Shown here: piece after piece, positions 5,261 through 61,685 of the stretch
How the letters are laid out: each line of letters starts with the position of its first letter
How positions within the stretch are numbered: position 1 is the stretch's first letter
Origin: an uncultured Prevotella sp.
Lineage (GTDB): Bacteria > Bacteroidota > Bacteroidia > Bacteroidales > Bacteroidaceae
Direction: 5' to 3'
Assembly: GCA_900315775.1 (NCBI GenBank)
Contig: ONAJ01000007.1
Span: 15,606 to 79,605, forward strand
DNA: 64,000 bases
The notes under the pieces: generated by a model
Databases searched by the model: none
The model's input: only the letters and a program-made list of their open reading frames with translations
What the model was told of the DNA's origin: nothing
Made by a program: the position numbers and the translations under genes

Positions 5261-5340
5261 TTTTCTAGGGTTTCCTAGGGGTTCCTAGGCGTTCCTAGGC
5301 GTTCCTAGGATTTCCTAGGCGTTCCTAGGCTTTCCTAGGC
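5261..5340. repeat. 10-bp tandem array (GTTCCTAGGC)n: 7 perfect CCTAGG palindromes plus 1 degenerate TCTAGG
   Basis: CCTAGG lies at 5274, 5284, 5294, 5304, 5314, 5324 and 5334, exactly 10 bp apart. The ilvD stop TAG (5337-5335) is inside the last unit. A T10-C-T8 tract (A-rich on the coding strand) links the array to the ilvB ATG. Confidence 0.95.
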
Positions 5341-8747: not shown

Positions 8748-9272
8748 ATGAAAAGAATTATCCTTATTACTGGGGGGCAGCGCTCGGGAAAGAGTGAGTA
8801 TGCAGAGAAGATGGCGCTAAAGCTGAGTGAGCACCCCGTATATATGGCTACAGCCCACATCTGGGACGAGGACTTCAAACAGCGAGTGAAGAGACACCAG
8901 GAGAGGAGGGGCGACAACTGGACTACCATAGAGGAAGAACAGCACCTTAGTCGTCACGACGTCAGCGGACAGGTGGTCGTCATAGACTGTATCACCCTTT
9001 GGCTTACGAATTTCTTCTATATATATAATAAGGTGGAAACGACACTCGAGAAGATAAAGGAAGAATTTGATAAGTTTACAGAACAGGATGCCACCTTCAT
9101 ATTCGTGACAAACGAGATAGGACTTGGTGGAATAGCCAGCGACCCGCTACAGCGACAGTTTACTGATTTGCAGGGCTGGATGAACCAATATGTTGCAGAG
9201 AAGGCTGACGAGGTGGTGCTGATGGTTAGTGGGATAGCGGTGGATATAAAGAGGTTAGAGGTTAGAGGTTAG
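8748..9272 (+). CDS. cobU: Adenosylcobinamide kinase / adenosylcobinamide-phosphate guanylyltransferase
   Basis: Start re-set to internal Met 54 of ORF 8589..9272: MKRIILITGGQRSGKSEYAE (P-loop). The upstream part of the ORF is AT-rich promoter DNA. Confidence 0.9.
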   Translation: MKRIILITGGQRSGKSEYAEKMALKLSEHPVYMATAHIWDEDFKQRVKRHQERRGDNWTTIEEEQHLSRHDVSGQVVVIDCITLWLTNFFYIYNKVETTLEKIKEEFDKFTEQDATFIFVTNEIGLGGIASDPLQRQFTDLQGWMNQYVAEKADEVVLMVSGIAVDIKRLEVRG

Positions 9273-9320
9273 AGGTTAGGGGATAGAATTATGAATTATG
9301 CATTATGAATTATGAATTAC
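9253..9320. repeat. Two abutting heptamer arrays: (GGTTAGA)x5 then (GAATTAT)x5
   Basis: The cobU stop TAG (9270-9272) lies inside the first array and the cobT ATG (9312) lies inside the second. Confidence 0.95.
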
Positions 9321-11796: not shown

Positions 11797-12339
11797 TTAC
11801 TGCTTCTGGATAATCTTCTTTCCTTCAGCTATAGCCTGCATGTTCAGCGGGATGAGTGCATGATGGCGCTCTGGGAGAGTCTTGAACAACGCCTTCTCCA
11901 CACCGTTCTCGCTTACCACAGGAGCCACTTGGAGCAGTCCGCCGAGGATAATCATATTGAACACCTTAGCATTCTTCATTGCTGCCGCCTTGTCCATAGC
12001 GTCGATACGATAAATCTCGATGTCGGTGCGCTTAGGAGGATTGATAATGCCGAAGCCGTCATATATCAATATTCCGCCGGGCTTTATCTTCGACTCGAAC
12101 TTATCCAGTGAAGGCTGGTTAAGCACAACAGCGATGTCGTACTTGCTAAGTATTGGCGACGAGATACGAGTGTCGCTGACGATGACTGTTACGTTGGCTG
12201 TTCCACCACGCTGTTCCGGACCATATGCAGGCATCCACGTCACCTCTTTGTCTTCCATAAGACCGCTATAGGCGAGAATCTTTCCCATAGAGAGGACTCC
12301 TTGTCCGCCAAATCCAGATATTATTATTTCCTTTTTCAT
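11797..12339 (-). CDS. 2-oxoacid:ferredoxin oxidoreductase, gamma subunit
   Basis: 180 aa. IIISGFGGQGVLSMGKILA...PAYGPEQRGGTA. Confidence 0.85.
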   Translation of the reverse strand: MKKEIIISGFGGQGVLSMGKILAYSGLMEDKEVTWMPAYGPEQRGGTANVTVIVSDTRISSPILSKYDIAVVLNQPSLDKFESKIKPGGILIYDGFGIINPPKRTDIEIYRIDAMDKAAAMKNAKVFNMIILGGLLQVAPVVSENGVEKALFKTLPERHHALIPLNMQAIAEGKKIIQKQ

Positions 12340-12369: not shown

Positions 12370-12375
12370 GTACTT

Positions 12376-12417
12376 CTAAACACTAACTCTTAACTCTAAA
12401 CTCTAAACTCTAAACTA
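12376..12417. repeat. Heptamer array (TAAACTC-like)x6; GAGTTTA on the coding strand
   Basis: The stop TAG of the beta subunit gene (12417-12415) lies inside the last unit. Confidence 0.9.
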
Positions 12418-13179
12418 AAGGCTCGTAGTATCCTTTAAATCTCCCTGAGGGTAGAACGGGAACATATTCTCGTTCATCCACTTGTTAGCCTCCTGCGGTG
12501 TTAGTTTCCAGCCGCTATTACATGTTGAGGTAATCTCCACGAGAGAGCTACCCTTTCCAGCCATAGAAGCCTCGAAAGCTTTACGCAGCGCCTTCTTCGC
12601 CTTGTTGATGTGGGCAACGGTGTCAACACTCTGACGAGTTACATAGCATGTACCCTCCAGCTGTGCTGCTATCTCGGGCATCTTCAGCGGATATCCGTGA
12701 AGTTCAGGCACACGTCCGTAGGGACACGTAGCAGTCTTCTGACCCAAAAGTGTTGTAGGCGCCATCTGACCACCCGTCATACCGTATATAGCATTGTTCA
12801 CAAAGACGATGACGATGTTCTCACCACGATTCAAAGCGTGGATTGTCTCACAAGTACCGATACAAGCGAGGTCGCCGTCACCCTGATAGGTGAACACCAT
12901 ACGGTCCGGCCACAGACGCTTTATCGCTGTAGCTACTGCTGGAGCACGTCCGTGAGCAGCCTCCTGCCAGTCTATGTCGAGATATCTGTATGCGAAGACG
13001 GCACATCCCACAGGAGAAACGCCAACGGTCTTGTCCTCCATACCCATTTCCTCTATAACCTCAGCAATGAGTTTATGTACTACACCATGCGAACAACCTG
13101 GACAGTAGTGCATGGGCACGTCGTTCATAAGGGTTGGTTTCTTATAAACCAAATTCTCTGGACTCTTTATATTGCTCAT
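12415..13179 (-). CDS. 2-oxoacid:ferredoxin oxidoreductase, beta (ThDP-binding) subunit
   Basis: 254 aa. HYCPGCSHG...YQGDGDLACIG... Confidence 0.9.
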   Translation of the reverse strand: MSNIKSPENLVYKKPTLMNDVPMHYCPGCSHGVVHKLIAEVIEEMGMEDKTVGVSPVGCAVFAYRYLDIDWQEAAHGRAPAVATAIKRLWPDRMVFTYQGDGDLACIGTCETIHALNRGENIVIVFVNNAIYGMTGGQMAPTTLLGQKTATCPYGRVPELHGYPLKMPEIAAQLEGTCYVTRQSVDTVAHINKAKKALRKAFEASMAGKGSSLVEITSTCNSGWKLTPQEANKWMNENMFPFYPQGDLKDTTSL

Positions 13180-18497: not shown

Positions 18498-19490
18498 TTA
18501 TTTTTTTATTACTTTCTTTCCGTTAACCACTACAATGCCTTTGTAGTCAGCACCAACCTTCTGACCAGCGAGATTATAGTAATCAGAATTATCAATTCTC
18601 AACTCTCCATTCTCAATTGAAAGTATTCCATCCACAATTTCTCCTTCATCGTAGTGGTCGTAGCTGAAGGCTTGGTCTTTCTTTGTACCCCAGATATACT
18701 GTTCCAGTCCTGGGTAGTCAACGAAGGGGTTGCGGTTGCCTTGATGATTATAAACAGCAATGTTGCGTGCAGTCTCTATCGCATCGACAGGGTCTTCCTC
18801 AGCCCAACGCAGGAACATATTAAGGGTCCACGTTGTAAGTCCCGGATATTTATTACCAGCAAAGACGTGTGAAGCCTCTGCGTTAGACGACCACGAACTT
18901 ATCTGGTTCTCGTAACATGTTGTCATATAAAAGTATATTCGTGCCAGGTCGCCCTTGATGTCGTCACCTGGTTCAAACACTGTTCCTCCGTAGCCTTCTG
19001 TCTTACACTGTCCCAGTTTACAGTAGTCACTGTTTGATGTGTATGTAGGATTTTTTACCTCGCCGAAAGGATAATTACCACGTCGGTTATTAACGTATGA
19101 ATCAGTAGGCACCACATGGTGTCCGTCGCTCTTCATCGGACTCGACTTGCTGAACCAGCTCTGTGGTATAGTATGTTCACGATTGTAGCTGTCACCTTCT
19201 TTTTTATAGGAATGATTTTCTGCTGGACCGTGTATTACATAGTTTGTGGTCTTTGAATACCAGTCACGCAACTTTCCGTCCTCACGTCTGTCCGATGTTT
19301 CATACATTGCCATTAGGGCATCGTAACCAGGATTTGAACTCTTATAAATTATTCCACAGAGAGCAGTCTTCAGTGCCTGTCCTTTCTTTCCGTCTGCATT
19401 TTTGTAGTACGTTCCGCTGTTGTTAGGTCCTTGTGCTTGGATTGTTGTCACAGCTATCACAGCCATAACTGTTGTTAGTAGTTTTTTCAT
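18498..19490 (-). CDS. Endonuclease I family extracellular nuclease with T9SS C-terminal sorting domain
   Basis: 330 aa with a signal peptide. NREHTIPQSWF, HHVVPTDSYVNNRRGNYPFGEV, GDLARIYFYM, NRNPFVDYPGLEQYIW. C-terminus YYNLAGQKVGADYKGIVVVNGKKVIKK. Confidence 0.85.
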   Translation of the reverse strand: MKKLLTTVMAVIAVTTIQAQGPNNSGTYYKNADGKKGQALKTALCGIIYKSSNPGYDALMAMYETSDRREDGKLRDWYSKTTNYVIHGPAENHSYKKEGDSYNREHTIPQSWFSKSSPMKSDGHHVVPTDSYVNNRRGNYPFGEVKNPTYTSNSDYCKLGQCKTEGYGGTVFEPGDDIKGDLARIYFYMTTCYENQISSWSSNAEASHVFAGNKYPGLTTWTLNMFLRWAEEDPVDAIETARNIAVYNHQGNRNPFVDYPGLEQYIWGTKKDQAFSYDHYDEGEIVDGILSIENGELRIDNSDYYNLAGQKVGADYKGIVVVNGKKVIKK

Positions 19491-22466: not shown

Positions 22467-23420
22467 ATGAAACAAGAAGTTACGAAAAGAATAACGCTTT
22501 CTGCAGAGTGGGAAGAACAGGAAATGGTGCAGCTGACGTGGCCTCACGAGAAGACCGACTGGGCACCTATGCTTCCTGAGATTACCGCCACATACATAGA
22601 GATGGCGCAGGCTATCAGCAAGTACGAGAAACTCCTCATTGTGGCTCCCGACGTAGAGAAAGTGAAGCGACTGCTCGCAGAGCACCTCACCACACAACAA
22701 ATGAGTAACGTGGTGTATCACCAGTGTCCTACCAACGACACGTGGGCACGCGACCACGCCTTCCTGACACTCTCCGACGGCACCCTACTCGACTTCTGTT
22801 TCAACGGATGGGGCGAGAAGTTCGAGGCATCACTCGACAACGCCATCAACCGCTCGTTGTATGAATCGGTTCACTCTCCTCTATCCTCTCTCCTCTCTTC
22901 TCTATCATACGAAAACCACCTCGACTTTGTCCTCGAGGGCGGATCTATAGAGAGCGACGGCAAGGGAACTATCTACACTACACGTTGCTGTCTCCTTGCG
23001 CCTCATCGCAACCAACCACTTACGGAGCAACAGATAGAGCAGGAGCTGAAGCGCCGACTACGTGCCGACCGCATAGTGTGGCTCGACGACGAGCCGCTGC
23101 CTGGCGACGATACCGACGGTCACATTGACACCTTAGCACGAATACTGCCCGACGGCACTCTGCTGCGGATGCCGCTCCCCGACCCTATCTACGACGAAGA
23201 CGGCACACAGCTGCCTGCGACATACGCCAACTACCTCATCATCAACGGTGCCGTACTGGTTCCCACCTACGGACAACCTGCCAACGACGAGAGGGCGATA
23301 CAGCGCATACAGGAGGCATTCCCCGACAGAGAGATGATACCTATTGACTCGCGGTCTATCATTCGTCAACATGGTTCTATACATTGTTGCACGATGCAGT
23401 ACCCGAGGGTTAGAGGTTAG
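22467..23420 (+). CDS. aguA: Agmatine deiminase (PAD_porph family)
   Basis: Start re-set to MKQEV because the promoter box overlaps the earlier ATG. AEWEEQEMVQLTWP, WARDHAF, GDDTDGHIDTLAR, HGSIHCCTMQYP. Confidence 0.85.
   Translation: MKQEVTKRITLSAEWEEQEMVQLTWPHEKTDWAPMLPEITATYIEMAQAISKYEKLLIVAPDVEKVKRLLAEHLTTQQMSNVVYHQCPTNDTWARDHAFLTLSDGTLLDFCFNGWGEKFEASLDNAINRSLYESVHSPLSSLLSSLSYENHLDFVLEGGSIESDGKGTIYTTRCCLLAPHRNQPLTEQQIEQELKRRLRADRIVWLDDEPLPGDDTDGHIDTLARILPDGTLLRMPLPDPIYDEDGTQLPATYANYLIINGAVLVPTYGQPANDERAIQRIQEAFPDREMIPIDSRSIIRQHGSIHCCTMQYPRVRG
22872..22906 (+). repeat. In-frame CT-rich heptamer array (CTCTNTC)x5 inside aguA
   Basis: The units are CACTCTC CTCTATC CTCTCTC CTCTCTT CTCTATC. 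They encode HSPLSSLLSSLS. Confidence 0.85.
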
Positions 23421-23449
23421 AGGTTAGAGGTTAGAGTTTAAAGATTAAA
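23408..23449. repeat. Heptamer array (GGTTAGA)x4 plus 2 degenerate units
   Basis: The aguA stop TAG (23418-23420) lies inside the array. The next ATG is at 23455. Confidence 0.95.
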
Positions 23450-23454
23450 GAAAT

Positions 23455-25140
23455 ATGAGAAAAACAAATCTATTACTACTACTCATTGGCTTCCTGCTAA
23501 TCGGTAGCCTTACTGCTAAAGCAGCGGAGTATGAGTATACGTTCACGGCAACGACGTTTCACAACTCAGAGACGTTGGCGCTTAACGACGTTGAGTGGAC
23601 ACTTGTCAACAACGGCAATTATTACGGATATGACGGCACTAAGGGTCAGCAGATAGGTTCCGGCGCCAATCCTGCTACTTCTGCCATCCTCTCCACGTCA
23701 GGCATTACGGGCTACATCACCTCGATTACCATTAACGTATCCGGAGCAAACGGCACCAACGCCACATTCGCTGTAAGTGTCAACGACAAACCGTTTACAT
23801 GCAGCGGAGAGACCTCCGTATCGCTTACTAACAGCGCTACCGCGTACACCTTCACGGGTGGACAGCAGGGAGAGATAAAACTGTCGTTTGCACAGACTTC
23901 GTCGGTGGCTCTCTATATCAAGAGCATCAACGTTACCTACTTCCCTTTGGTGACAAGCATAGCAGCCTTCAAGTCGCTGACTGCCGAAACTGAGGCGGCG
24001 CTAAGTTTCAGCGATGCAGCCAATGCTCGCATCACCTTTGTAAACGACAAAGAGGTGTTCCTGCGCGACAATACCGGCGCCATCTGCCTATATAATAATA
24101 ATGTGTTCACCCCGTCACGCCCTTGGGCTTACAATCAACACGTGGCAGGTAGCATCATCGGCAAGAACACCGTCGATAACGGTATGCCGGAAATGGTGGC
24201 TACAGCAAACACCAACACCGATAATCTCGTCATTGCGGACCGTGTGAGCGAGGATATGGTGATGCCGAAGGAGATTGACGCCAGCGCCTACGACGCTAAC
24301 CTCGCCGACTGGGTAAAGGTAGAAAACCTTGTAAAGGGAACAAGTAACATTGAGGCTTACGACAAATACTCTTCTGCCTGCTTCCAGATGCCACACAACG
24401 GAGCACGCTACGACCTCTCGGGAATAGCCGTTCCTAACAATAGCACAAAACAGATTGCACCAATCTATCAGAACAGCGTTCGTCCTCTCGTTTATGTCAT
24501 CGACGAAAACGAGACCTTCGTATCGCCTGCAAGCGACATCCAGAACGCTACCGTCCGACTGGTGCGCACACTAAGCAGCGAATACTGGAACACCTTTGCC
24601 GTACCTTTCAACTTCAGCTTCGACGAGACGGAGGCTCTCATCCGCGAATACGACAACATCAGCGGCACTACAATGCTCTTCAAAGAGGCTGAAAGCATCG
24701 AGGCAGGAAAGCCCTACCTCATCATTCCTGACGAGACTATTGCCAACCCCGTATTCTACGACGTAACACTCAGCGCAACCCCAGCACAGACGGTGACTCA
24801 CGGCGCATACAGTTTCGTTGCTATCTACTCGCCTTACGCTATGGCTACCGACCAAACCGAGCTGTATCTTGGCGACGGCGATCTGCTCTACTACCCTGTT
24901 GACAATACTTCAAACACCATGAGGGGCATGCGTGCCTTCTATCGTGTTCCTATCGGTGGTGCTAAGGTTGCTATCTACGGCGAAGACTACGAAGAGGAAG
25001 AGACTGACGGAATCCGCTCAATTGAGAATTCGGAGTTGAGAATTGATAATTATGATTACTATAACCTCGCTGGTCAGCGCGTAGGCAAGGACTATAAGGG
25101 CATAGTAATTAAGAATGGTAAGAAGTACATCATAAAATAA
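23455..25140 (+). CDS. Hypothetical secreted protein with T9SS CTD
   Basis: 561 aa. Signal peptide ...LTAKA/AEY. C-terminus GIRSIENSELRIDNYDYYNLAGQRVGKDYKGIVIKNGKKYIIK. The body has no family I recognise. Confidence 0.75.
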   Translation: MRKTNLLLLLIGFLLIGSLTAKAAEYEYTFTATTFHNSETLALNDVEWTLVNNGNYYGYDGTKGQQIGSGANPATSAILSTSGITGYITSITINVSGANGTNATFAVSVNDKPFTCSGETSVSLTNSATAYTFTGGQQGEIKLSFAQTSSVALYIKSINVTYFPLVTSIAAFKSLTAETEAALSFSDAANARITFVNDKEVFLRDNTGAICLYNNNVFTPSRPWAYNQHVAGSIIGKNTVDNGMPEMVATANTNTDNLVIADRVSEDMVMPKEIDASAYDANLADWVKVENLVKGTSNIEAYDKYSSACFQMPHNGARYDLSGIAVPNNSTKQIAPIYQNSVRPLVYVIDENETFVSPASDIQNATVRLVRTLSSEYWNTFAVPFNFSFDETEALIREYDNISGTTMLFKEAESIEAGKPYLIIPDETIANPVFYDVTLSATPAQTVTHGAYSFVAIYSPYAMATDQTELYLGDGDLLYYPVDNTSNTMRGMRAFYRVPIGGAKVAIYGEDYEEEETDGIRSIENSELRIDNYDYYNLAGQRVGKDYKGIVIKNGKKYIIK

Positions 25141-42883: not shown

Positions 42884-43859
42884 GAAATACCAAAATGCAT
42901 TTTTCTTCTTCGGTCTGGCGGTACTTGTCATTATGGTGTCGCAGATGGATTTCGAAGAGGTGTGGCAAGGACTTCAGCGTGCTGGATATTGGTTCTTTGC
43001 CGTCGTAGCATTGTGGGCTTTCCTTTACATATTTAATACTGCTGCGTGGTGGCTGATAATAAAATCACCTAAAATATCCTTTTGGTGGCTCTACAAGGTG
43101 ACGATAGCAGGATTTGCACTAAACTACGCCACACCAGGAGGACTGATGGGAGGAGAACCCTACAGAATAATGTCGCTGTCGCCATACATAGGTACTGAAC
43201 GAGCCACTTCGTCAGTAATACTTTATGTTATGACACACATATTCTCACACTTCTGGTTCTGGCTATTGTCGGCTGTACTCTATGTGCTGACACAGCCTAT
43301 GACCGTCTTTATGGCGATAATACTTAGTCTGGTAGTACTCTTCTGCGCCCTCGGAATATGGTTCTTTGTGGTAGGTTATACGAAAGGACTGGCGGTGAGG
43401 ATGCTCAACATCCTGAAACATATTCCTATGGTGAAACGTTGGGCAATACCTTTCATTGAAGAACACAGAAAACAACTTGACGAGATTGACACACAGATAG
43501 CTGCACTCCATAAACAGGAAACAAAAACTTTTGTAGCGGCAGTACTTTTAGAGCTGTCGTGTCGTGTAGTGTCAGCTCTTGAGATAATGTTCGTACTGCT
43601 GGTGATAATGCCTTCCGTGAACTACCTGCAATGCATCCTTATTCTGGCTTTCACTTCTTTGTTCGCTAATCTACTCTTCTTCATCCCGCTGCAACTGGGT
43701 GGCAGAGAGGGAGGATTCCTTATGTCGGTAGGCGGCTTGGGAATGACTGCCAGCGCCGGTATCTTCGTAGCGCTGATAGTACGCATTCGAGAACTTATAT
43801 GGACGGCAATAGGACTCCTTTTCATAAAACTTACAGATAGAAAAAGAATAAAAGAATAA
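42876..43859 (+). CDS. Lysylphosphatidylglycerol-synthase-TM-region (flippase-like, UPF0104) family membrane protein
   Basis: 327 aa, polytopic. [22 protein letters not shown]... Confidence 0.65.
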
Positions 43860-43903
43860 AAATAAAATGTTCCTTTTTATTTTGTATTCTCTTCGCTTAT
43901 TCG

Positions 43904-49195: not shown

Positions 49196-50531
49196 CACGT
49201 AGTACGTGCTGAGTGTTATCAGTCACCTTGTATCTGTTATCAGTACGTTCTCCGACAACCCACAGAATATTATCGTTAGCGTCCGTCAACACCAGTTGAC
49301 GGCGCTTTTCGTATATATTCATTTTCCTGTCTGTCATATAGTCGCTGAGTAGTCTGCTGCCCTCCATTCCAAACGGATGGAATCTGTCGCCAGCAGTAAT
49401 ATTACGAAGAATCAAGGGGAATGAGATGTTCTCAGCATCGAGAGTTGCTATATTCTTATCGCGACTGACTACTCCGTCAGCATTATCTATTTTCTCAATA
49501 CGCAACTTACTTTCTTGGGTGTCAATACGATAGAGCCCTTCTTCAGGAATTTTCATCATCGTACTTTTCTCTTCCTGACGATTGGAAACGATGAGTCTTT
49601 CTCTATCTACGAGTACGCACGATGTTGCAGAGAGAAACTCCCTACCCGACTCCCCATAACGATTTTCGTAAATCTGTTCTACCTGAGTCGAGGAGAAACC
49701 ATAATCCTTCAGTATCTCGTAAAGCAGATATTTTGGTGCTTTCTGACTGTCAAGTTTCTTAATATCAATACTCCCTGCACCCTCGTTGAACACTATTTCT
49801 TTCTGTTTCCTTATACTCTCGTCAACAATTTTCTCCACATCGCAAAGTACTCCCGCCGTATGAGCTATATTCTCGCAAGCAGCAGGATTCAGCTCTTTAA
49901 GAAGAGGTATTAACTCCAGTCGCACCTTGTTACGCATGAAGTCTGTTTCTTTGTTGGTGCTATCAGTAACATAGTCTTGCCCTTCCGCACGAAGAAACTC
50001 TTCTATTTCAGCCCTTGTTACTACTAGCAGAGGACGTATAATGCCGTCATGTACAGGCTGTATGCCTCGCAATCCTCGCAGTCCTGTACCTCGCACAAGA
50101 TTTAGAAGTACCGTTTCCACTGAGTCGTCACGATGGTGTGCCACACACACTCCACAAGCTCCGATGTCGTTCCTCAGCTGTGCGAAGTAGTTATAGCGCA
50201 ACTCTCGTGCTGCCATCTCTATGCTTATCTTGTGCAACGAGGCATACTCCAGCGTGTCGAAGTGTATTCTATGAAGCGGAACAGAGAGTTTTTCGCAGAA
50301 ACTGACGCAGAACTTCTCATCTCTATCCGACTCCTCACCACGAAGGTGGAAGTTACAATGAGCAGCCTCAACATCATATCCTAACTGCTTCAGTGAAAGC
50401 AGAAGAGCTACGCTGTCGGCACCACCGGAAAGAGCTACGATATACTTGTTGCCCTTGTCGAGCAGATTATTGTCAGCTATATATTTCGCTACCCTATTCA
50501 ACATACAGCACGAGTCCTTTAAGATACTCAC
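49182..50531 (-). CDS. tilS: tRNA(Ile)-lysidine synthase
   Basis: 449 aa. PP-loop ALSGGADSVALL. Confidence 0.9.
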   Translation of the reverse strand: MSILKDSCCMLNRVAKYIADNNLLDKGNKYIVALSGGADSVALLLSLKQLGYDVEAAHCNFHLRGEESDRDEKFCVSFCEKLSVPLHRIHFDTLEYASLHKISIEMAARELRYNYFAQLRNDIGACGVCVAHHRDDSVETVLLNLVRGTGLRGLRGIQPVHDGIIRPLLVVTRAEIEEFLRAEGQDYVTDSTNKETDFMRNKVRLELIPLLKELNPAACENIAHTAGVLCDVEKIVDESIRKQKEIVFNEGAGSIDIKKLDSQKAPKYLLYEILKDYGFSSTQVEQIYENRYGESGREFLSATSCVLVDRERLIVSNRQEEKSTMMKIPEEGLYRIDTQESKLRIEKIDNADGVVSRDKNIATLDAENISFPLILRNITAGDRFHPFGMEGSRLLSDYMTDRKMNIYEKRRQLVLTDANDNILWVVGERTDNRYKVTDNTQHVLRVTLL

Positions 50532-51684
50532 CTTCAGGATGATAGATATTTATCGGATGGTCTGCCGGCTGATGTAGCTGGTGGAGTATTCTCACCTTTC
50601 TACCGCTTATGGCGGCTGCCGTAAACACAGCATTACGGAAATTCTCCTTTGTTACTACCTGCGAGCAACTGAAAGTGAACAGCACACCACCCTTCTTAAT
50701 GCGTTGGAAAGCCTTTACGTTAAGGCGCGTATAGCCCTTCAGCGCATTTCTCAGAGCAGCCCTATGTTTCGCAAATGCCGGCGGATCAAGTATTATGAGG
50801 TCGTATTTGTCGTCAGCATCGTCAAGAAACTTAAAAGCATCTTCGCAGAATGCCTCATGACGTTTGTCGCCTTTGAAGTTCAGCTCCACATTAGCATTAG
50901 TGAGTTCTATAGCCTTTGCACTACTATCTACAGAGTGTACCATACTTGCTCCGCCTCGCATAGCATAGACGGAGAAGCCTCCTGTGTAGCAGAACATATT
51001 GAGTACGGTACGTCCTTTTGCATATTTCTCGAGCAGACTTCTGTTTTCGCGCTGGTCAACAAAGAATCCTGTCTTTTGTCCTCTCAGCCAGTCAACATAG
51101 AATTTCAGTCCGTTCTCGACAGCAACATTCTCTGGTGATCCACCATAAATAAAGCCGTTTTCCTGTCCCAGTTCTGCCTTATACGGAAGGGTTGTCTCAC
51201 TCTTGTAGTATATGTTTTCTATTCGCGAACCCATAACTTTTACGAGTTCGTTGGCAATCTCCTGCCGACAGATGTGCATTCCCACGCTATGTGCCTGCAT
51301 CACAGCCGTTTTCCCGTAGCAGTCTATAACAAGTCCAGGCAGGTTGTCGCCCTCTCCGTGAACCAGTCTGTAGGTATTGTTCTCCGCCGTGTCAGCAACA
51401 CCAATGTTTATGCGTACCTGCAGGGCTGCCTCAAGACGACTGTGCCAAAAGTTTTCATCAATAGTAATATCTCTGAACGATAGTACTCTGACGGCAATAC
51501 TGCCTATCTGTGCGTGTCCCACAGCAATGAAGTCGCCTTTCTCTGTAAGCACCCTCACGGTGTCACCCTCCTCCACGCCGTTGTCAGCACGCAGTATAGC
51601 TCCCGAGAACACCCACGGATGGAAACGTTTCAGACTCTCCTCTTTACCCTTCTTCAGGTATATATTCTTGTAACTCATAGTCAT
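50494..51684 (-). CDS. Class I SAM-dependent rRNA methyltransferase (RlmI/RlmK-like, PUA N-terminus)
   Basis: 396 aa. FHPWVFSGAI..., VLNMFCYTGGFSVYA, DPPAFAK. Confidence 0.8.
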   Translation of the reverse strand: MTMSYKNIYLKKGKEESLKRFHPWVFSGAILRADNGVEEGDTVRVLTEKGDFIAVGHAQIGSIAVRVLSFRDITIDENFWHSRLEAALQVRINIGVADTAENNTYRLVHGEGDNLPGLVIDCYGKTAVMQAHSVGMHICRQEIANELVKVMGSRIENIYYKSETTLPYKAELGQENGFIYGGSPENVAVENGLKFYVDWLRGQKTGFFVDQRENRSLLEKYAKGRTVLNMFCYTGGFSVYAMRGGASMVHSVDSSAKAIELTNANVELNFKGDKRHEAFCEDAFKFLDDADDKYDLIILDPPAFAKHRAALRNALKGYTRLNVKAFQRIKKGGVLFTFSCSQVVTKENFRNAVFTAAAISGRKVRILHQLHQPADHPINIYHPEGEYLKGLVLYVE

Positions 51685-52379: not shown

Positions 52380-54824
52380 ATGGCAAAGAAAAAACAACCC
52401 AAAGTAGCCAAATCTTTCAACGAGGCTATAGGTGTAAAAAATATATTCCAGAACGACATTTTCAATGCTATTTTTGGTATAGCATTGATATTTTTCTCTG
52501 TATATCTCATCATTGCATTCGTCTCGTATTTCAGTACTGGCGCCATAGACCAGAGTCATGTTTTGGACCAGCGTCCTGGCGAGTGGGCAAATACGGAACG
52601 CGAGTATCAGAATATCTGTGGCAGTATGGGAGCAATGCTGAGCAACTTCTTCATTGCCCGCTGTTTCGGACTCTCTGCTTTCGCTGTTCCTCTGCTTATA
52701 AGCATCATCGGAGTACGTATTCTTAAGGCATTCAAGAAGGTGAACCTCTTAAAGTGGTTCCTCTCATTGACGATAATAATGATATGGACCTCTGTAGCCT
52801 TTGCCAAGTTCCTCACACCGTTTATGGGTGACGAGGTTTACAATCCTGGAGGAGGTCACGGAGAGTATGTCAGCACATTCCTCGAGAACGTCATAGGAAC
52901 ACCAGGTCTTGTGGCTGTATTAGCCCTCATAGCTATAATGTTCCTGACATACACCACCTCGGAAACTATTATCATCATCCGCAAGATGTTCAACCCCATC
53001 GGAGCCATCACTAACAAGGTGAAGTTCCGCATAAAGAATATTTCCGAAGGCGACGGTGAGGAGTCGTCAGACACCATAAGTACCCTCCCCGATCCTGACA
53101 CCTTCGACGACCCAGAGCCGCAGACTGTAGATTTCGGCAACATCACCAACGATGCTGATAACAATGCAACGGAAGTAGTGGAAGAGACGGAAACGACAGA
53201 AGAAACAGAGGAGACAGAGGAGACAGGAATGACTATAAGCACAGGTAGCGAAGAAGAGAAAGCCGACGGCAAGACTGTCGGCGAGGTAGATCTCTCTACA
53301 CCTATCAACCCCAAGGAGCCTTGGACGAAATATAAGTATCCTACTCTCGACCTCCTGAAGAAATACGAGAACGACGGAAAGCCTTACATCGATATGAAGG
53401 AGCAGAACGAGAACAAGGACCGCATCATCAAGGTTCTTGGCAACTTCGGTGTTCAGATAAGCTCTATCACAGCTACCGTCGGTCCTACCATCACCCTCTA
53501 CGAGATTACCCCTGCTCCGGGTGTTAAGATTGCAAAGATCCGTAACCTCGAGGACGACATCGCCCTGTCGCTTGCAGCCCTCGGAATACGTATCATCGCT
53601 CCTATTCCTGGCAAGGGAACAATAGGTATCGAGGTGCCTAATGCGAAGTCTAACATCGTATCTATGGAGAGCATCCTCAACAGTCGTAAGTTCCAGGAAA
53701 CGGATATGGCGCTGCCTATAGCACTCGGAAAGACTATCACCAATGAAGTGTTTATGGTCGATTTGGCAAAGATTCCTCACCTGCTCGTTGCTGGTGCTAC
53801 CGGTCAGGGTAAGTCTGTCGGTCTTAACGCCATCATCACCTCGTTGCTCTACAAGAAACATCCTAACGAGTTGAAGTTCGTACTCATCGACCCGAAGAAG
53901 GTGGAGTTCAGCGTCTATGCTCCTATAGTAAACCACTTTATGGCAAAGGTGCCTGACGAGACTGGCGAAGAGGAAGCTATCATCACCGACGTCACGAAGG
54001 TTATCCGCACCCTGAACAGTCTCTGTAAACTTATGGATACCCGCTACGACCTCCTGAAGAAGGCTGGTGCGAAGAACATCAAGGAATATAACGCTAAGTT
54101 TGTGAACCACAGACTGCGTATTACCGATGGTCACGAGTATATGCCTTACGTCGTTGTTATCATCGACGAGTTTGGCGACCTCATCATGACAGCCGGCAAG
54201 GAGATAGAGCTTCCTATAGCACGTATTGCCCAGCTGGCACGTGCTGTGGGCATCCATATGGTTATCGCCACACAGCGTCCTACAACGTCTATCATCACAG
54301 GTAACATCAAGGCGAACTTCCCAGGTCGTATGGCGTTCCGTGTAAGTGCTATGATAGACTCACGAACCATCCTCGACCGTCCTGGTGCCAACCAGCTTAT
54401 CGGTCGCGGTGATATGCTCTTCCTCAACGGCAACGAACCTGTCCGCGTACAGTGTGCCTTCGTTGATACTCCTGAGGTGGAGGACATCAACCAGTTCATC
54501 TCAAGTCAGGCAGGACCTACAGAACCTATGGAACTTCCCGAGCCGAATACCGACGAGGAAGGCGGAGGCGGCGGTGGTGTCCTCGACTCTCACAGTCTTG
54601 ACCCGCTCTTCGAGGAGGCTGCTCACGCTATCGTTGTTTCCCAGCAGGGCTCAACGAGTATGATACAACGTCGTTTCTCTATCGGTTACAACCGTGCCGG
54701 ACGACTTATGGACCAGATGGAACAGGCTGGTGTCGTTGGTGCCGCTCAGGGTAGCAAGCCTCGTGAGGTGCTTATCACCGACATCGCTTCGCTCGATAAT
54801 CTTATTGCGCAGCTGAGGGGTTAG
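52380..54824 (+). CDS. ftsK: DNA translocase FtsK/SpoIIIE
   Basis: 814 aa. N-terminal TM segments, acidic TEETEETEET linker, GATGQGKS, VVIIDEFGDL, C-terminal gamma domain MIQRRFSIGYNRAGRLMDQME. Confidence 0.95.
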   Translation: MAKKKQPKVAKSFNEAIGVKNIFQNDIFNAIFGIALIFFSVYLIIAFVSYFSTGAIDQSHVLDQRPGEWANTEREYQNICGSMGAMLSNFFIARCFGLSAFAVPLLISIIGVRILKAFKKVNLLKWFLSLTIIMIWTSVAFAKFLTPFMGDEVYNPGGGHGEYVSTFLENVIGTPGLVAVLALIAIMFLTYTTSETIIIIRKMFNPIGAITNKVKFRIKNISEGDGEESSDTISTLPDPDTFDDPEPQTVDFGNITNDADNNATEVVEETETTEETEETEETGMTISTGSEEEKADGKTVGEVDLSTPINPKEPWTKYKYPTLDLLKKYENDGKPYIDMKEQNENKDRIIKVLGNFGVQISSITATVGPTITLYEITPAPGVKIAKIRNLEDDIALSLAALGIRIIAPIPGKGTIGIEVPNAKSNIVSMESILNSRKFQETDMALPIALGKTITNEVFMVDLAKIPHLLVAGATGQGKSVGLNAIITSLLYKKHPNELKFVLIDPKKVEFSVYAPIVNHFMAKVPDETGEEEAIITDVTKVIRTLNSLCKLMDTRYDLLKKAGAKNIKEYNAKFVNHRLRITDGHEYMPYVVVIIDEFGDLIMTAGKEIELPIARIAQLARAVGIHMVIATQRPTTSIITGNIKANFPGRMAFRVSAMIDSRTILDRPGANQLIGRGDMLFLNGNEPVRVQCAFVDTPEVEDINQFISSQAGPTEPMELPEPNTDEEGGGGGGVLDSHSLDPLFEEAAHAIVVSQQGSTSMIQRRFSIGYNRAGRLMDQMEQAGVVGAAQGSKPREVLITDIASLDNLIAQLRG

Positions 54825-54867
54825 TGGTTAGTGGTTAGAGGTTAGAGGTTAGTGGTTAGAGGTTAGA
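54819..54867. repeat. Heptamer array (GGTTAGW)x7
   Basis: The ftsK stop TAG (54822-54824) lies in the first unit. The array ends just before the lolA-like start region. Confidence 0.95.
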
Positions 54868-57459: not shown

Positions 57460-59751
57460 ATGAGAAATATCATTTTAAAGGGCGCACTCGTTGCGCTGGT
57501 AGCCTTCTGCGGAGTAGAAGCTAATGCACAGAACGACGTTCCAGCCGACCAGACAAAGAATCAGCTCAGCCTGGAACTTACAAGCGGCGAGAACAAATAC
57601 TATAATACTGAGGCTATCACCAGCGTTGATATCAACGACGGCAATGTCAAGGTGAACAGCGACCAGTATAACGGCAACGTTAAGACAATATCTTTCAACA
57701 AGGCCAATATTATCAACGAGGACGGCAAGGTAGAGATTATCGAGGCTAAAGGATGGTTGGAGTCAGCCTATATCAAGTTCAAGCTCCTTCAGGGTGCCGT
57801 TACCTATAATGTCTATGTCAAGGGCGGACAGTATGCCGACTGGACAAAGATAGACTACCAGCTGGTACGCAACTACGGCACCTACGGACGTGCTGACGTA
57901 GTAGGCCTTAAGGCTGGTTCCTACGCTTTGAAGGTTGTTCCAGTTGACGGAACAAAGGCAGAAAAGGCTTCCGCCGCCAACGAGGTGTCAGGACTCACCG
58001 TTACCAACTACGACCGCTCCGGTTTCGCACACTTCAACTATAGCGGCATAGGTGCTTACAACGACGACGGTACGCTGAAGTCTAACGCTAAGGTTCTCTA
58101 CGTCACTAAGAACACCGCAAAGACTATATCTACCACCGTTGCTGGTGCTCAGACAAATCCTTGTGTTGGTCTGCAGAACATCATCACCGCCTACGAGAAG
58201 GGACAGGACCAGACTCCTATCGCCTTCCGTTTCATCGGACTCGTAACAAAGGATGACCTCGATGCTATAGGCAGCTCTACTCACGGTATTCAGGTGAAGG
58301 GCAAGAAGTCTTACTCGGTAATGAATATGACCTTCGAGGGTATCGGCGACGATGCTACAATACGCGGCTTCGGCTTCATGACTCGTAACAGCACGAGTGT
58401 AGAATACAGAAACCTGGCTATCATGCGTTGTATGGACGACGACGTCGAGCTGAACACAGAGAACTCTCATATCTGGATTCACCACAACGACATCTTCTAC
58501 GGTGAACACGGAGGCGGCGACCACGCTAAGGGCGACGGATGCGTAGATATCAAGGACAACTCACAGTATATCACCGTAAGCTACAACCACTACTGGGATA
58601 CCGGTAAGACAAATATGTTCGGTATGAAGAGCGAGAGCGGTCCTAACTACCTTAGCTATCACCACAACTGGTTCGACCACTCCGACTCTCGTCACCCACG
58701 TGTTCGTACTATGTCTGTTCACGTATGGAACAACTTCTTCGACAACATAGCGAAGTATGGTGTTGGTGCCACCTCTGGCGCAAGCGTATTCGTTGAGAAT
58801 AACTACTTCCTCAAGACAAAGAAACCTATCCTCTCTTCAGGTCAGGGTACCGACGCTCTCGGCTCAGGAACATTCTCTGGCGAGGAAGGCGGTATGATAA
58901 AGGCTTACGGCAACTACTTCGACCGCAATGCAGTAAACTTCAAGTACTTCACCCAGAGCAACCCTGCCTCAACAGGCTACGACGCTTACGAGACAGCATC
59001 ACGTGACGAGAAGGTGCCCGCTTCTGAGGTAACACGCTCAGGAGGTCACAAGTACGACAACTTCGATACCGACGCATCACTGATGTACGCCTATAATCCT
59101 GATGCAGCCGAGGACGTTCCCGGCATCGTAAAGAGCTACTACGGAGCAGGTCGTCTTAATCATGGTGACTTCACCTACACCTTCAAGGACAATGTTGGTA
59201 ACGACGATACCGACTCTGCCTACGACTCTGCACTCGGTTCACTCCTCGACAACTACAAGTCATCACTCGTAGGAATCTTCGACGGAGAGAGCTCTGGCGG
59301 TGGTGAACAAGGCGGTGGCGAACAAGGCGGCGGCGAACAAGGCGGCGGCGAACAAGGCGGCGGCGTGACACCAGCACCAGAAGGCACTATCCTCTGCTCT
59401 TTCGACGGAGAACCTTCACAGAGTATGTTTACTGCTGCCAACAACTACGGCGACGGCAAGATTACCTACAACGGCGTTTACTACAAGAAGGGTGAGAAGA
59501 TGGACTCTAAGGGTTCTATCAGCTTCACTCCTACAAAGAACTACAACATGACAATAGTTCTCGGAACAGCAAAATCAGGCACCAACGTTAATATCAACGG
59601 TGTTACTACAACCGTCGGCGGTACAACAAACACCGAAGGTAAGTACTACGAACTCGACCCTATCGAGGTGACGGCAAACACACAGTACACCATCACCAAA
59701 GGTTCTGCCGAAGGACTGGTAATGCTCATCATTCTTGAGCCTAAAGAATAA
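57460..59751 (+). CDS. Pectate lyase (PL1-like parallel beta-helix) with GGGEQ-repeat linker and a C-terminal beta-rich module
   Basis: 763 aa with a signal peptide. IWIHHNDIF, DGCVDIKDNSQYITVSYNH, SRHPRVR. Confidence 0.8.
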   Translation: MRNIILKGALVALVAFCGVEANAQNDVPADQTKNQLSLELTSGENKYYNTEAITSVDINDGNVKVNSDQYNGNVKTISFNKANIINEDGKVEIIEAKGWLESAYIKFKLLQGAVTYNVYVKGGQYADWTKIDYQLVRNYGTYGRADVVGLKAGSYALKVVPVDGTKAEKASAANEVSGLTVTNYDRSGFAHFNYSGIGAYNDDGTLKSNAKVLYVTKNTAKTISTTVAGAQTNPCVGLQNIITAYEKGQDQTPIAFRFIGLVTKDDLDAIGSSTHGIQVKGKKSYSVMNMTFEGIGDDATIRGFGFMTRNSTSVEYRNLAIMRCMDDDVELNTENSHIWIHHNDIFYGEHGGGDHAKGDGCVDIKDNSQYITVSYNHYWDTGKTNMFGMKSESGPNYLSYHHNWFDHSDSRHPRVRTMSVHVWNNFFDNIAKYGVGATSGASVFVENNYFLKTKKPILSSGQGTDALGSGTFSGEEGGMIKAYGNYFDRNAVNFKYFTQSNPASTGYDAYETASRDEKVPASEVTRSGGHKYDNFDTDASLMYAYNPDAAEDVPGIVKSYYGAGRLNHGDFTYTFKDNVGNDDTDSAYDSALGSLLDNYKSSLVGIFDGESSGGGEQGGGEQGGGEQGGGEQGGGVTPAPEGTILCSFDGEPSQSMFTAANNYGDGKITYNGVYYKKGEKMDSKGSISFTPTKNYNMTIVLGTAKSGTNVNINGVTTTVGGTTNTEGKYYELDPIEVTANTQYTITKGSAEGLVMLIILEPKE
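59296..59365 (+). repeat. 15-bp tandem repeat x4.7 (GGCGGYGGYGAACAA) encoding (GGGEQ)4GGG
   Basis: Direct inspection. The last two units are identical. Confidence 0.95.
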
Positions 59752-59900: not shown

Positions 59901-59973
59901 GCGCTTGTAGCTCAGTTGGTAGAGCACCTGACTCTTAATCAGGGTGTCCAGGGTTCGAACCCCTGCAGGCGTA
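59901..59973 (+). tRNA. tRNA-Lys (anticodon CUU)
   Basis: Hand-folded cloverleaf: acceptor GCGCTTG/CAGGCGT (two G-U pairs), D arm GCTC-AGTTGGTA-GAGC, anticodon arm CCTGA-CTCTTAA-TCAGG, T arm CAGGG-TTCGAAC-CCCTG, discriminator A. No encoded CCA. Confidence 0.9.
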
Positions 59974-60149: not shown

Positions 60150-61637
60150 ATGGCAAATTTAAAATCACTAAGCAAGCAGACCGCTCCTAAGAGTGTTATG
60201 CCTGAAAGAATTATCCAGTTCGGTGAGGGTAACTTCCTCCGCGCATTCGTTGACTGGATTATCTGGAACATGGACGCAAAGACCAACTTCAACGGTAGCG
60301 TTGTCGTTGTTCAGCCTATCGAGCGTGGTATGGTTGACTGGCTCAACGGTCAGGACTGTCTCTATCACGTAAACCTGCAGGGTCGCCTCAACGGTGAGGC
60401 TGTAAACTCACTGGAACGTATCGACGTCATCAGTCGCGCCCTCAACCCCTACTCTCAGAACTGGGCATTCATGTCATTGGCAGAGCAGCCAGAGATTCGT
60501 TTCGTAATCTCTAACACCACAGAGGCTGGTATTGCTTTCGACGACACCTGTAAGTTCACCGACGCTCCTGCTTCTTCTTACCCAGGTAAGCTCGTGCAGC
60601 TGCTCTATCGTCGTTTCAAGACCTTCAACGGCGATCCTACAAAGGGTCTTATCATCATGCCTTGCGAGCTCATCTTCCTCAACGGTCACCACCTGAAGGA
60701 CTGCATCGAGAAGTACATCGAGCTGTGGAAGGCTGACCTCGGTGCTGACTACGCTGCTTTCAAGGAGTGGTTCGAGAAGTACAACTACGTTTGCGCTACC
60801 CTCGTTGACCGCATCGTTCCTGGCTTCCCACGCAAGGAGATTGCCGACATCCAGCAGAAGATTGGCTACAAGGACAACCTCGTTGTTCAGGCAGAAATCT
60901 TCCACCTCTGGGTTATCGAGAAACCAACAAATATGTCTATCGAGCAGCTCCGCGAGGAGTTCCCTGCAGAGAAGGCAGGTCTCCACGTTCTCATCGCCGA
61001 GAGCGAGGCTCCTTACCACGAGCGTAAGGTTACGCTGCTCAACGGTCCTCACACCGTTCTCTCTCCTGTTGCTTACCTCTCTGGCGTTGACATCGTCCGC
61101 GATGCTTGCAACCACGAGGTTATCGGTAAGTACATCCACAAGGTACAGTTCGAGGAGCTCATGCAGACCCTGAACCTCCCTATGGAAGAGCTGCAGCAGT
61201 TCGGTGCCGACGTTCTGGAGCGTTTCAACAACCCGTACGTTGACCACCAGGTAACAAGCATCATGCTCAACTCATTCCCCAAGTTCCAGACCCGCGACCT
61301 TCCTGGTCTGAAGGTATATCTGGAGCGCAAGGGCGAGCTGCCTAAGGGCTTGGTACTCGGTCTCGCTGCTATCATCACCTACTACAAGGGTGGCAAGCGT
61401 GCCGACGGCGCAGAGATTGTTCCTAACGATGCTCAGGAGATTATGGACCTGCTGAAGAACCTCTGGGCAACAGGCGACACACGCAAGGTTGCTGAGGGTG
61501 TCCTCGCTGCTAAGGACCTCATCTGGGGCGAGCACGGCGACCTGAACCAGATTCCTGGTCTCACCGATATGGTAGTAAGCTTCCTCGACAGCATCCAGCA
61601 GAAGGGTATGCTCGAAACCGTCAAAACTATTTTGTAA
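60150..61637 (+). CDS. uxaB: Tagaturonate reductase (altronate oxidoreductase), mannitol dehydrogenase family
   Basis: 495 aa. PERIIQFGEGNFLRAFVDWII... Confidence 0.85.
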   Translation: MANLKSLSKQTAPKSVMPERIIQFGEGNFLRAFVDWIIWNMDAKTNFNGSVVVVQPIERGMVDWLNGQDCLYHVNLQGRLNGEAVNSLERIDVISRALNPYSQNWAFMSLAEQPEIRFVISNTTEAGIAFDDTCKFTDAPASSYPGKLVQLLYRRFKTFNGDPTKGLIIMPCELIFLNGHHLKDCIEKYIELWKADLGADYAAFKEWFEKYNYVCATLVDRIVPGFPRKEIADIQQKIGYKDNLVVQAEIFHLWVIEKPTNMSIEQLREEFPAEKAGLHVLIAESEAPYHERKVTLLNGPHTVLSPVAYLSGVDIVRDACNHEVIGKYIHKVQFEELMQTLNLPMEELQQFGADVLERFNNPYVDHQVTSIMLNSFPKFQTRDLPGLKVYLERKGELPKGLVLGLAAIITYYKGGKRADGAEIVPNDAQEIMDLLKNLWATGDTRKVAEGVLAAKDLIWGEHGDLNQIPGLTDMVVSFLDSIQQKGMLETVKTIL

Positions 61638-61640
61638 CCA

Positions 61641-61685
61641 ATAGTAAAATAGTAAATTGTAAATAGTAAAATAGTAAATAATAAA
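61641..61685. repeat. 7-8-bp tandem array (ATAGTAAA-like)x6 between convergent genes
   Basis: Flanked by the inverted 8-mers GTAACCAA (61635-61642) and TTGGTTAC (61688-61695). These contain the two convergent stop codons. Confidence 0.9.

Follow-up and report, generated by a model that had tools for sequence, protein, structure and literature searches.

Why should tandem arrays of a 7-nucleotide (nt) unit recur at gene junctions of one genome, sitting on the stop codons of the upstream genes? The question is raised by a 64-kb stretch of DNA (hereafter the window, at its full length) from an uncultured Prevotella metagenome scaffold (ENA ERZ28614891 scaffold_286, sample 'STEW18'), in which the focal array, seven copies of GGTTAGW, lies at the junction between ftsK and a gene of the LolA_2 family. 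A sequence-only reading of the window had listed arrays of this kind at seven or more junctions and treated all-frame stop arrays, most units placing a stop codon in all three frames, as a systematic junction feature. From a comparison of the window with related genomes and with contigs of its own species, we argue that the arrays are probably hypermutable heptanucleotide simple-sequence repeats (SSRs) of the long class, enriched in this rumen Prevotella lineage and carried as dispensable by-products.

Period-7 arrays are lineage-restricted and concentrated at stop codons

Arrays were called with Tandem Repeats Finder (TRF) and by a separate periodicity scan, flanking genes were assigned with Pfam, and RNA families with Rfam at the gathering threshold. 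TRF called 11 period-7 arrays in the window and none in 100 dinucleotide-preserving shuffles. The two methods concur on period-7 arrays at every junction named in the sequence-only reading, and TRF adds five arrays within open reading frames (ORFs) that were absent from it (starting at 18587, 19590, 22870, 25020 and 35708). Period 8 accounts for a single array in the window. In 80 Prevotella loci, the counts are 42 for period 7, 19 for period 8 and 2 for periods 4–6; arrays of period 4–6 are missing from the window and from both array-rich clades, the two examples lying in the remaining 1.2 Mb. The density of period-7 arrays is 172 per Mb in the window, 210 per Mb in its five closest relatives (L001–L004 and L017) and 133 per Mb in a second clade (L054, L056, L057, L066 and L077), against 10.7 per Mb in the other 70 Prevotella loci. 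From this contrast in density and the near-absence of periods 4–6 it follows that the abundance of heptamer arrays is a lineage-restricted and period-specific phenomenon.

The positions of the arrays are as non-random as their period. A stop codon is contained in 6 of the 12 period-7/8 arrays of the window, where 0.4 would be expected at random and none of 1,000 simulations reached 6, and 3 of the 12 are intra-ORF, where random placement predicts 11. Seven of the eight junction arrays separate co-directional genes, one is convergent and none is divergent. This enrichment at stop codons and co-directional junctions, which is directly observed, bears out what had been proposed from the sequence, and the odd C-terminal tails described there (...RLEVRG*, ...PRVRG* and ...AQLRG*) are correct. 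The accompanying claim that the stop is part of the array at six of seven junctions holds in part: five stops lie strictly inside (cobU, the beta gene of 2-oxoacid:ferredoxin oxidoreductase, aguA, the DUF4837 gene and ftsK), and a looser count of 6–7 takes in CotH, whose stop the array abuts, and mannitol dehydrogenase, whose stop is 2 nt off.

Arrays differ between strains by whole units

The conspecific set comprises about 25 contigs (such as L207, L212 and L219; L215 is the window's own contig), with flanks that diverge by about 1–3%, or about 8% for L219, in the two sets measured. Between fixed anchors, the focal array spans 40, 47, 61 or 68 nt in conspecific strains, corresponding to 3–7 units, and in the sister genome L001 (CAMUVE010000004.1; 95.8% identity to the window over 17 kb), it is exactly 21 nt shorter than in the window. 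At cobU/cobT, strains with 100% identical CobT have spacers of 33, 68, 82, 89, 124 and 152 nt, within which the GAATTAT array on the cobT side ranges from one to seven copies; the cobU-side array extends from a two-copy proto-repeat (L207) up to 15.4 units by TRF, or about 17 by eye (L201). Alleles of 40, 54 and 75 nt occur at the oxidoreductase junction and of 43, 50 and 99 nt at the array starting at 41888, and the array at the 3′ end of aguA measures 68 nt in the window against 96 nt in L232–L234, its units drifting from GGTTAGA through GATTAGA to GTTTAGA. The few recovered strains do not differ in the array that follows CotH (28628), and the array at 61640–61685 is wholly missing from L001. 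Both the unit-step polymorphism and the presence or absence of whole arrays are thus seen directly.

The unit at a given site changes as well. At the focal junction, L212 has the stop TGA followed by (GAGTGAA)8, and L219 has TAA followed by (AGTGAAT)3(GAATTAC)4; among other species, L002 carries an 8-mer array and L017 other heptamers, and most of the others inspected have no array, with FtsK ending in QLRK* or QLRG*. The 18587 site holds GGAGAGA units in L201 and CGAGATA units in L206 and L207.

Arrays grow out of stop and start codons in short spacers

Array-free alleles reveal the starting state. In L207 the cobU/cobT junction reads AAGAAGTAAGAAGTATG (AAG AAG TAA GAAGT ATG), that is, the stop TAA, a 5-nt spacer and an ATG; it holds a two-copy AAGAAGT proto-repeat that includes the stop, plus a single copy of what later becomes the GAATTAT unit, placed around the ATG. 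In further strains the junction interleaves GAAGTAA, GAGGTAA and GAGGTTA units. The RlmN and DUF4837 genes of the window share 4 nt (GAG TGA A, the start being GTG), and this heptamer is expanded to (GAGTGAA)4–8 in L218 and L219. The unit also follows the stop at ftsK, where TGA goes with GAGTGAA and TAG with GGTTAGA. Because these observed array-free alleles contain either a codon-containing two-copy proto-repeat or an overlap, we conclude that each array grows from a stop or start codon that was already there, at the edge of a tiny spacer.

Co-directional spacers in the window have a median length of 12 nt by crude ORF calls, and arrays make up 32–97% of the spacers that hold them. In a simple seed model, a spacer of S nt offers S+1 insertion points that spare both ORFs, five of which duplicate a unit with the whole stop; a duplication of 7 nt that is tolerated then takes in the complete stop with a probability of 0.83 at S = 5 and 0.38 at S = 12. 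Because spacers are so short, the stop codons observed inside five to six of the eight junction arrays, against 38–83% by the model, are expected without any selection for stops. Once the repeated 7-mer holds a stop or an ATG, that codon appears in all three frames, because 7 mod 3 = 1.

Arrays within genes keep the reading frame

In the central loop of a major facilitator superfamily (MFS) transporter, the array measures 60, 81 or 126 nt among strains, all multiples of 3. The array inside aguA is 57 nt long in the window against 42 nt in L232–L234, where it consists of (TCTTCAC)x4. A 23S rRNA methyltransferase of RlmI type has no insertion in the window, and its orthologs in three related species, L054 (5854–5889), L056 (3614–3644) and L077 (5881–5912) carry in-frame heptamers in one loop, just 5′ of the YDLIILDPP motif. 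The frame is kept in every coding array compared, and this preservation points to the same mutational process everywhere, with selection removing disruptive products. The 'broken' MFS gene of L224, considered as an array-caused frameshift, is interrupted by a scaffold gap of Ns.

A slippage model and its limits

In the reading we favour, an array would begin as one duplication of a 7-nt stretch in a very short spacer between co-directional genes; because the ancestral spacer would be only about 0–12 nt long, the duplicated stretch would necessarily take in the upstream stop or the downstream start. Replication slippage would then lengthen or shorten the array by whole units, and point mutations in single units would spread through it. 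Only arrays that spare both reading frames would survive, and because of this filter arrays would gather at 3′ ends and at the junctions within operons, the stop would fall in the first unit, and arrays within genes would be confined to tolerant loops and to total lengths that are multiples of 3; the filter, together with the remainder of 1 when 7 is divided by 3, would yield the all-frame stops and ATGs. Such arrays would alter at most the last residues of the upstream protein and the spacing and sequence before the next start. That slippage drives these changes and that purifying selection does the filtering is our inference. The slippage reading leaves both the period of 7 and the recurrence of a few units unaccounted for.

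Five observations weigh against it. First, the same units turn up at unrelated loci: GAGTGAA at five sites, GAGGTTA and GAGAGGA at three each, GAATTAT and TAGTTGA at two each. Second, composition is biased, with GAG present in 17 of 24 site/unit combinations (background 0.22, p = 4 × 10−7) and one strand free of C in 19 of 24 (p = 2.5 × 10−7), both tests assuming an independence that does not fully hold. Third, the window's MFS loop (35725–35756) shares an identical 32-mer, CTCTTCACTCTTCACTCTTAACTCTTCACTCT, with the aguA-internal site of L232–L234 (7666–7697), and both copies include the variant unit TCTTAAC. Fourth, the heptamers in the loop of the RlmI-like enzyme are unrelated across L054, L056 and L077 (TTCAACG, AATGGTC and CTCACCT). 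Fifth, most junction arrays stop 1–5 nt short of the following start codon (0–5 nt for cobT, pdxA, lolA and the gene that follows aguA), and because they end so close to it they may contribute to translation initiation. The recurrence of units at unrelated loci is more than plain local slippage can explain, and a purely local origin of every unit is contradicted by that recurrence and by the shared 32-mer. The unit vocabulary may stem from exchange between arrays, from biased expansion of some units, or from a common filter for unstructured, C-free leaders.

Alternative explanations

One alternative takes the arrays to be a dispersed, homogenised family, with array sequence copied between loci by ectopic template switching, gene conversion or a templated or mobile mechanism, and slippage acting on top, so that every genome would end up with a small heptamer vocabulary of its own. 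The presence of the same units at three to five unrelated sites and of the 32-nt identity at two loci in different strains speaks for it, as do the unrelated units found at one site in sister strains or species and a small hairpin element that lies within arrays at two loci. In the clade of L054, L056 and L057, TTGAMCR units occupy at least six sites in both orientations, including inverted pairs, and a single dominant heptamer per genome is likewise on record for Xanthomonas, Nostoc and Beggiatoaceae (PMC4692102, PMC4679880). However, cobU/cobT (GAAGTAA to GAGGTAA to GAGGTTA) and the RlmN stop directly show a stepwise local origin, a shared filter (C-free, stop-containing, unstructured) can make short units converge, and neither a transposase nor a target-site duplication nor a donor locus came to light. 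We therefore regard copying between loci as unlikely, if worth keeping in view.

The inverted pairs of L056 (15538–15617, 17509–17540 and 17902–17933) take the form (CATTGAC)n ... (GTCAATG)n; one pair is 17 nt apart within an ORF and another stands on both sides of a 123-aa gene. The hairpin element (...CCTCCCCC[A/G][G/A]CCCCTCCAAAGGGAGGGGAG...) is found only in some strains (L201 165–182, L202 327–344, L205 209–226, L207 383–400 and L225 2904–2921), at two unrelated loci, an intergenic site just outside the window and, in frame, the MFS loop; the window itself has none. It resembles the very small mobile repeats reported from within heptamer arrays of Nostoc.

A metagenome scan for (GGTTAGW)4 (L081–L200) returned more than 120 contigs of 28–68% GC, with many arrays at contig ends and some of 10–25 copies. 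About 31 sense and about 10 antisense cases have an ORF of at least 100 aa that terminates within the array; these counts cover this one unit, and the scan shows only that such arrays are widespread.

A second alternative makes the arrays a functional cis-element: a C-free, unstructured stretch of mRNA ahead of the next start, putatively recruiting ribosomes or RNA-binding proteins, with copy number tuning expression. Candidate binders, proposed from the regularity of the motif, would be S1, cold-shock (Csp)-like or RNA recognition motif (RRM) proteins, or a ring protein that reads NAG-N4 repeats. To our knowledge, the phylum of the host lacks Shine–Dalgarno sites. The lack of structure, the bias towards GAG and against C, and the termination of arrays next to the four starts listed above are all consistent with such a platform. 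At ftsK/lolA, moreover, an array of some kind is found in 12 of 12 conspecific contigs (L001, L210–L219 and the window, 11 of them independent) and, with different units, in two other species, and the same role was put forward for TAACTGA repeats by MacGregor 2015 (PMC4679880). Against this, some strains have lost the array or keep just 1–2 units while nothing else differs (at cobU/cobT, ilvB/ilvD and 61640); units differ between loci and, at one locus, between strains; arrays also follow terminal genes (CotH and mannitol dehydrogenase) and lie within ORFs; and the heptamers of Xanthomonas showed no regulatory effect (Rehm et al. 2015, PMC4692102). A cis-acting role of this kind seems to us rather doubtful. 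It is more doubtful still, in our judgement, that the arrays belong to a genome-wide GAG-NNNN system whose units are copied between loci and kept as tunable, Shine–Dalgarno-independent initiation platforms and hydrophilic loop linkers.

The proposal from which we started, that the arrays are selected as all-frame barriers to read-through or frameshifted ribosomes at cistron boundaries, draws on the enrichment at stop codons and on the TAG, TAA or TGA in most junction units, which puts a stop in every frame. Yet simple arithmetic puts stops in all frames once any 7-mer with a native stop is repeated; stop-free junction units exist (GCATCTC after CotH, AATGGTC in L056); one or two units would suffice where up to about 17 are present; and the same arrays occur in frame inside genes. 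Conspecifics with the same gene order have anything from 2 to about 17 units, or no array. Variation and loss in such strains, which the sequence-only reading had itself named as an outcome that would count against it, weaken the case for a required function, and a purposeful stop device is highly improbable. That the arrays are assembly or sequencing artefacts of metagenome contigs can be practically dismissed: repeats can mislead assemblers, the window is itself metagenomic and the array of L204 borders on a run of Ns, but over 20 independent assemblies, produced in different studies, have the same arrays at the same sites with coherent unit steps, and most arrays are shorter than a sequencing read.

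Features of the window

The arrays, the genes that they adjoin and other features are listed in Table 1. Pfam confirmed cobU/cobT, the beta and gamma genes of 2-oxoacid:ferredoxin oxidoreductase, aguA, CotH, DUF4837/pdxA, ftsK/LolA_2 and mannitol dehydrogenase as neighbours.

Table 1 Positions of tandem arrays, adjoining genes and further features in the window
Feature	Position	Strand	Context
(GGTTAGW)x7, focal array	54812..54867 (TRF 54819-54867)	+	ftsK/LolA_2 junction; TRF, sequence, Pfam
ftsK	52380..54824		stop TAG 54822-54824 in first unit of focal array
LolA_2 gene	start candidates 54873, 54879 or 54906		after focal array
(GAGGTTA)x5.4 (TRF: AGAGGTT)	9250..9287	+	cobU 3′ end; stop TAG 9270-9272 inside; tail RLEVRG*
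(GAATTAT)x4.9	9286..9319	+	cobT 5′ end; start ATG 9312 inside
(GAGTTTA)x6 (TRF: TCTAAAC x6.1)	12375..12416	-	2-oxoacid:ferredoxin oxidoreductase beta/gamma junction; beta stop TAG in first unit
2-oxoacid:ferredoxin oxidoreductase beta gene	12415..13179	-	stop 12415-12417
2-oxoacid:ferredoxin oxidoreductase gamma gene	11797..12339	-	
(GGTTAGA)x4.7 + degenerate units	23408..23451	+	aguA 3′ end; stop 23418-23420 inside; ends 3 nt 5′ of next ATG (23455)
(GCATCTC)x4.9, coding strand (TRF: CGAGATG)	28628..28665	-	abuts CotH stop 28666-28668; followed by hairpin; unit without stop codon
(TAGTTGA)x5.3	41888..41925	+	DUF4837/pdxA; first 3 nt (41888-41890) are DUF4837 stop; ends 1 nt 5′ of pdxA ATG (41927)
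(AATAGTA/AATAGTAA)x6, mixed period 7/8	61640..61685	+	convergent junction, between mannitol dehydrogenase stop (61635-61637, 2 nt away) and strong terminator hairpin
In-frame GAGAGGA and GAGTGAA heptamers	35708..35776	-	MFS transporter central loop, ...RGEERVKSEELRVKSEERKEER...
In-frame (TCCTCTC)-type array	22870..22906	+	within aguA; cuts PAD_porph Pfam match into two stretches
Degenerate (GAGAATT)x4.6	18587..18618	-	near C-terminus of Endonuclease_1 protein; encodes SIENGELRIDN
Paralogous copy of 18587 array	19590-19621	-	
Paralogous copy of 18587 array	25020-25051	+	
RlmI-like 23S rRNA methyltransferase gene	50494..51684		
10-nt unit TTCCTAGGCG x8	5261-5341		between ilvD and acetolactate synthase large-subunit gene
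22-nt unit AGTAAACCTATGGTTTGGTCGG x5.8	31650-31776		663-nt gene-free region, Fic gene to large PAD_porph gene
22-nt hairpin-like units AACGAGAGCCGGCCTCGTT x3	31846-31909		same 663-nt region
Short A-rich repeat	43839-43867		LPG_synthase_TM/sigma-54 activator junction
9-nt GAAGAGACA-type coding repeat	53181-53226		within ftsK
15-nt coding repeat GGCGGCGGCGAACAA x4.7	59296-59365		
tRNA gene	59901-59973		Rfam, 70 bits

Repeats of other periods are present too. The 10-nt units next to ilvD each contain the palindrome CCTAGG (RNA fold −39.8 kcal/mol, z −7.7); this array is missing in three of seven conspecific strains, which have a 5-nt spacer there, and has 4–8 copies in the others. At the LPG_synthase_TM/sigma-54 activator junction, where the window has the short A-rich repeat only, some of L210–L219 carry (GAGAAAAT/GAGAGATT) 8-mer arrays and some (TCTTCAC)x4.6. 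Coding repeats whose period is divisible by three vary among strains as well: 9-nt indels set L001, L218 and L219 apart at the 9-nt repeat of ftsK, and the 15-nt repeat is strongly diverged in L001. Period-22 repeats like those of the Fic/PAD_porph region are also frequent in other Prevotella loci (33 TRF rows).

The tRNA gene is the sole Rfam match of the window and the only part that is 85–99% identical in distant Prevotella loci, most matches being at 96–99%. Three ...YYNLAGQ.V...KGIV... proteins were considered as carrying a type IX secretion system C-terminal domain, and an NCBIfam search gave no such match.

A LolA-based scan with one genome per species places the window in an uncultured Prevotella, and exact-protein look-ups match it to scaffold_286 of ERZ28614891. 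Judging by sample names and by the metagenome-assembled genomes from rumen, omasum and abomasum among its relatives, the host of the window comes from cattle rumen. Its species is common, with the SecG protein indexed in 520 blocks of the collection; look-ups of pdxA and Fic returned the window's own contig and one 3.9-kb contig with the same array allele, and nothing else.

RNA structure and G-quadruplexes

Folding of the heptamer arrays as RNA is no stronger than that of shuffled sequences (z from −0.8 to +1.5), in agreement with the earlier remark that no unit forms a hairpin, and at the gathering threshold no Rfam family overlaps a heptamer array in the window; on these grounds, hairpins, terminators, repetitive extragenic palindromic (REP) sequences and bacterial interspersed mosaic elements (BIMEs) were rejected as explanations. 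G-quadruplexes were rejected likewise, as neither strand of the window has a G3-N(1–7) x4 motif and the units hold at most GG.

Relation to described repeats

The arrays are best taken as lineage-amplified heptamer SSRs, of a kind that has already been described. The sequence-only reading knew of no earlier account of all-frame stop arrays, but MacGregor 2015 (PMC4679880) noted all-frame stops and Rehm et al. 2015 (PMC4692102) reported heptamers at stop codons.

The former study concerns TAACTGA heptamer repeats in marine Beggiatoaceae, Cyanobacteria and five Bacteroidetes, which lie just 5′ of start codons and overlap upstream stops in 13 sets. Common to these repeats and the window arrays are the 7-nt tandem organization, a mostly intergenic position 5′ of starts with some copies on stops, stops in all frames, the lack of predicted RNA structure, occasional intra-ORF copies, and relatives without repeats that have shorter spacers; in Bacteroidetes, other heptamers occupy the same spacers. 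The window differs in using several units (GAGGTTA, GAGTGAA, GAATTAT, TAGTTGA and others) and in its gut or rumen Prevotella host. TAACTGA itself has no tandem copies in the window and a single isolated one, so that the position, stop overlap and all-frame stops of the TAACTGA family are shared while its defining unit is not, and membership was rejected. Beyond what is known of the TAACTGA repeats, copy-number polymorphism among strains and proto-repeat alleles are documented for the window arrays, and it is because of these that we argue for their dispensability.

The arrays studied by Rehm et al. 2015 (PMC4692102), of GGGAATC in Xanthomonas and GGGGA(T/C)T in Nostoc, lie between co-directional ORFs, at most 50 bp from stop codons or overlapping them, and vary between close relatives; no regulatory effect was found. 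They share with the window arrays a genome-specific heptamer at many loci, enrichment between co-directional ORFs, inverted pairs, depletion between divergent ORFs and in coding DNA, and differences in length and sequence between close relatives. Their units contain tracts of three to four Gs and form G-quadruplexes in vitro, whereas the window units, with GG at most, have no canonical motif of this type.

More generally, in many bacteria no class of long SSR is more abundant than the heptamers, for which polymerase slippage has been proposed as the cause, according to Mrázek, Guo & Shah 2007 as cited in PMC4692102 and PMC4679880; the same two papers cite the heptameric short tandemly repeated repetitive (STRR) sequences of Calothrix (Mazel 1990). 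As far as these citing accounts describe them, such repeats share with the window arrays a preference for period 7 over periods 4–6 and 8–11, a sporadic distribution across lineages, a mostly intergenic position and slippage as the proposed origin. All the hallmarks of heptamer long SSRs are found in the window: at least about four tandem copies above chance, an excess of period 7, co-directional intergenic placement and variation by whole units. Among the papers that could be searched, which do not include the original long-SSR survey, we found no record of such arrays in Prevotella or rumen Bacteroidales.

The contingency SSRs of Haemophilus, Neisseria and Helicobacter switch surface or restriction-modification genes on and off from within their promoters or 5′ coding regions. 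The window arrays resemble them in probably being hypermutable and in changing by whole units between strains, but are found where housekeeping genes end, at operon junctions, or in frame-preserving loops, and no on/off switch follows from such positions. A phase-variation locus was rejected, given arrays with all-frame stops at 3′ ends and junctions and coding arrays that vary only by multiples of 3. HutP sites consist of three UAG triplets with 4-nt spacers in the hut mRNA of Bacillus. The likeness, which serves as a lead only, is to the NAG that recurs every 7 nt on unstructured RNA in (GAGGUUA)n and (UAGUUGA)n; unlike HutP-type sites, several window units, such as GAATTAT, have no NAG.

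Significance

The arrays extend the C-termini of proteins, insert peptides into the loops of enzymes and confuse the calling of gene starts, and they are ready markers for strain typing. Since 2007 it has been a question why repeats of 7 nt predominate among long bacterial SSRs and why every genome has a few preferred units of its own. The abundance of this Prevotella species in public metagenomes provides hundreds of natural alleles per locus, which could make the birth of proto-repeats, the dynamics of unit steps, the turnover of units and a possible exchange between loci directly measurable.

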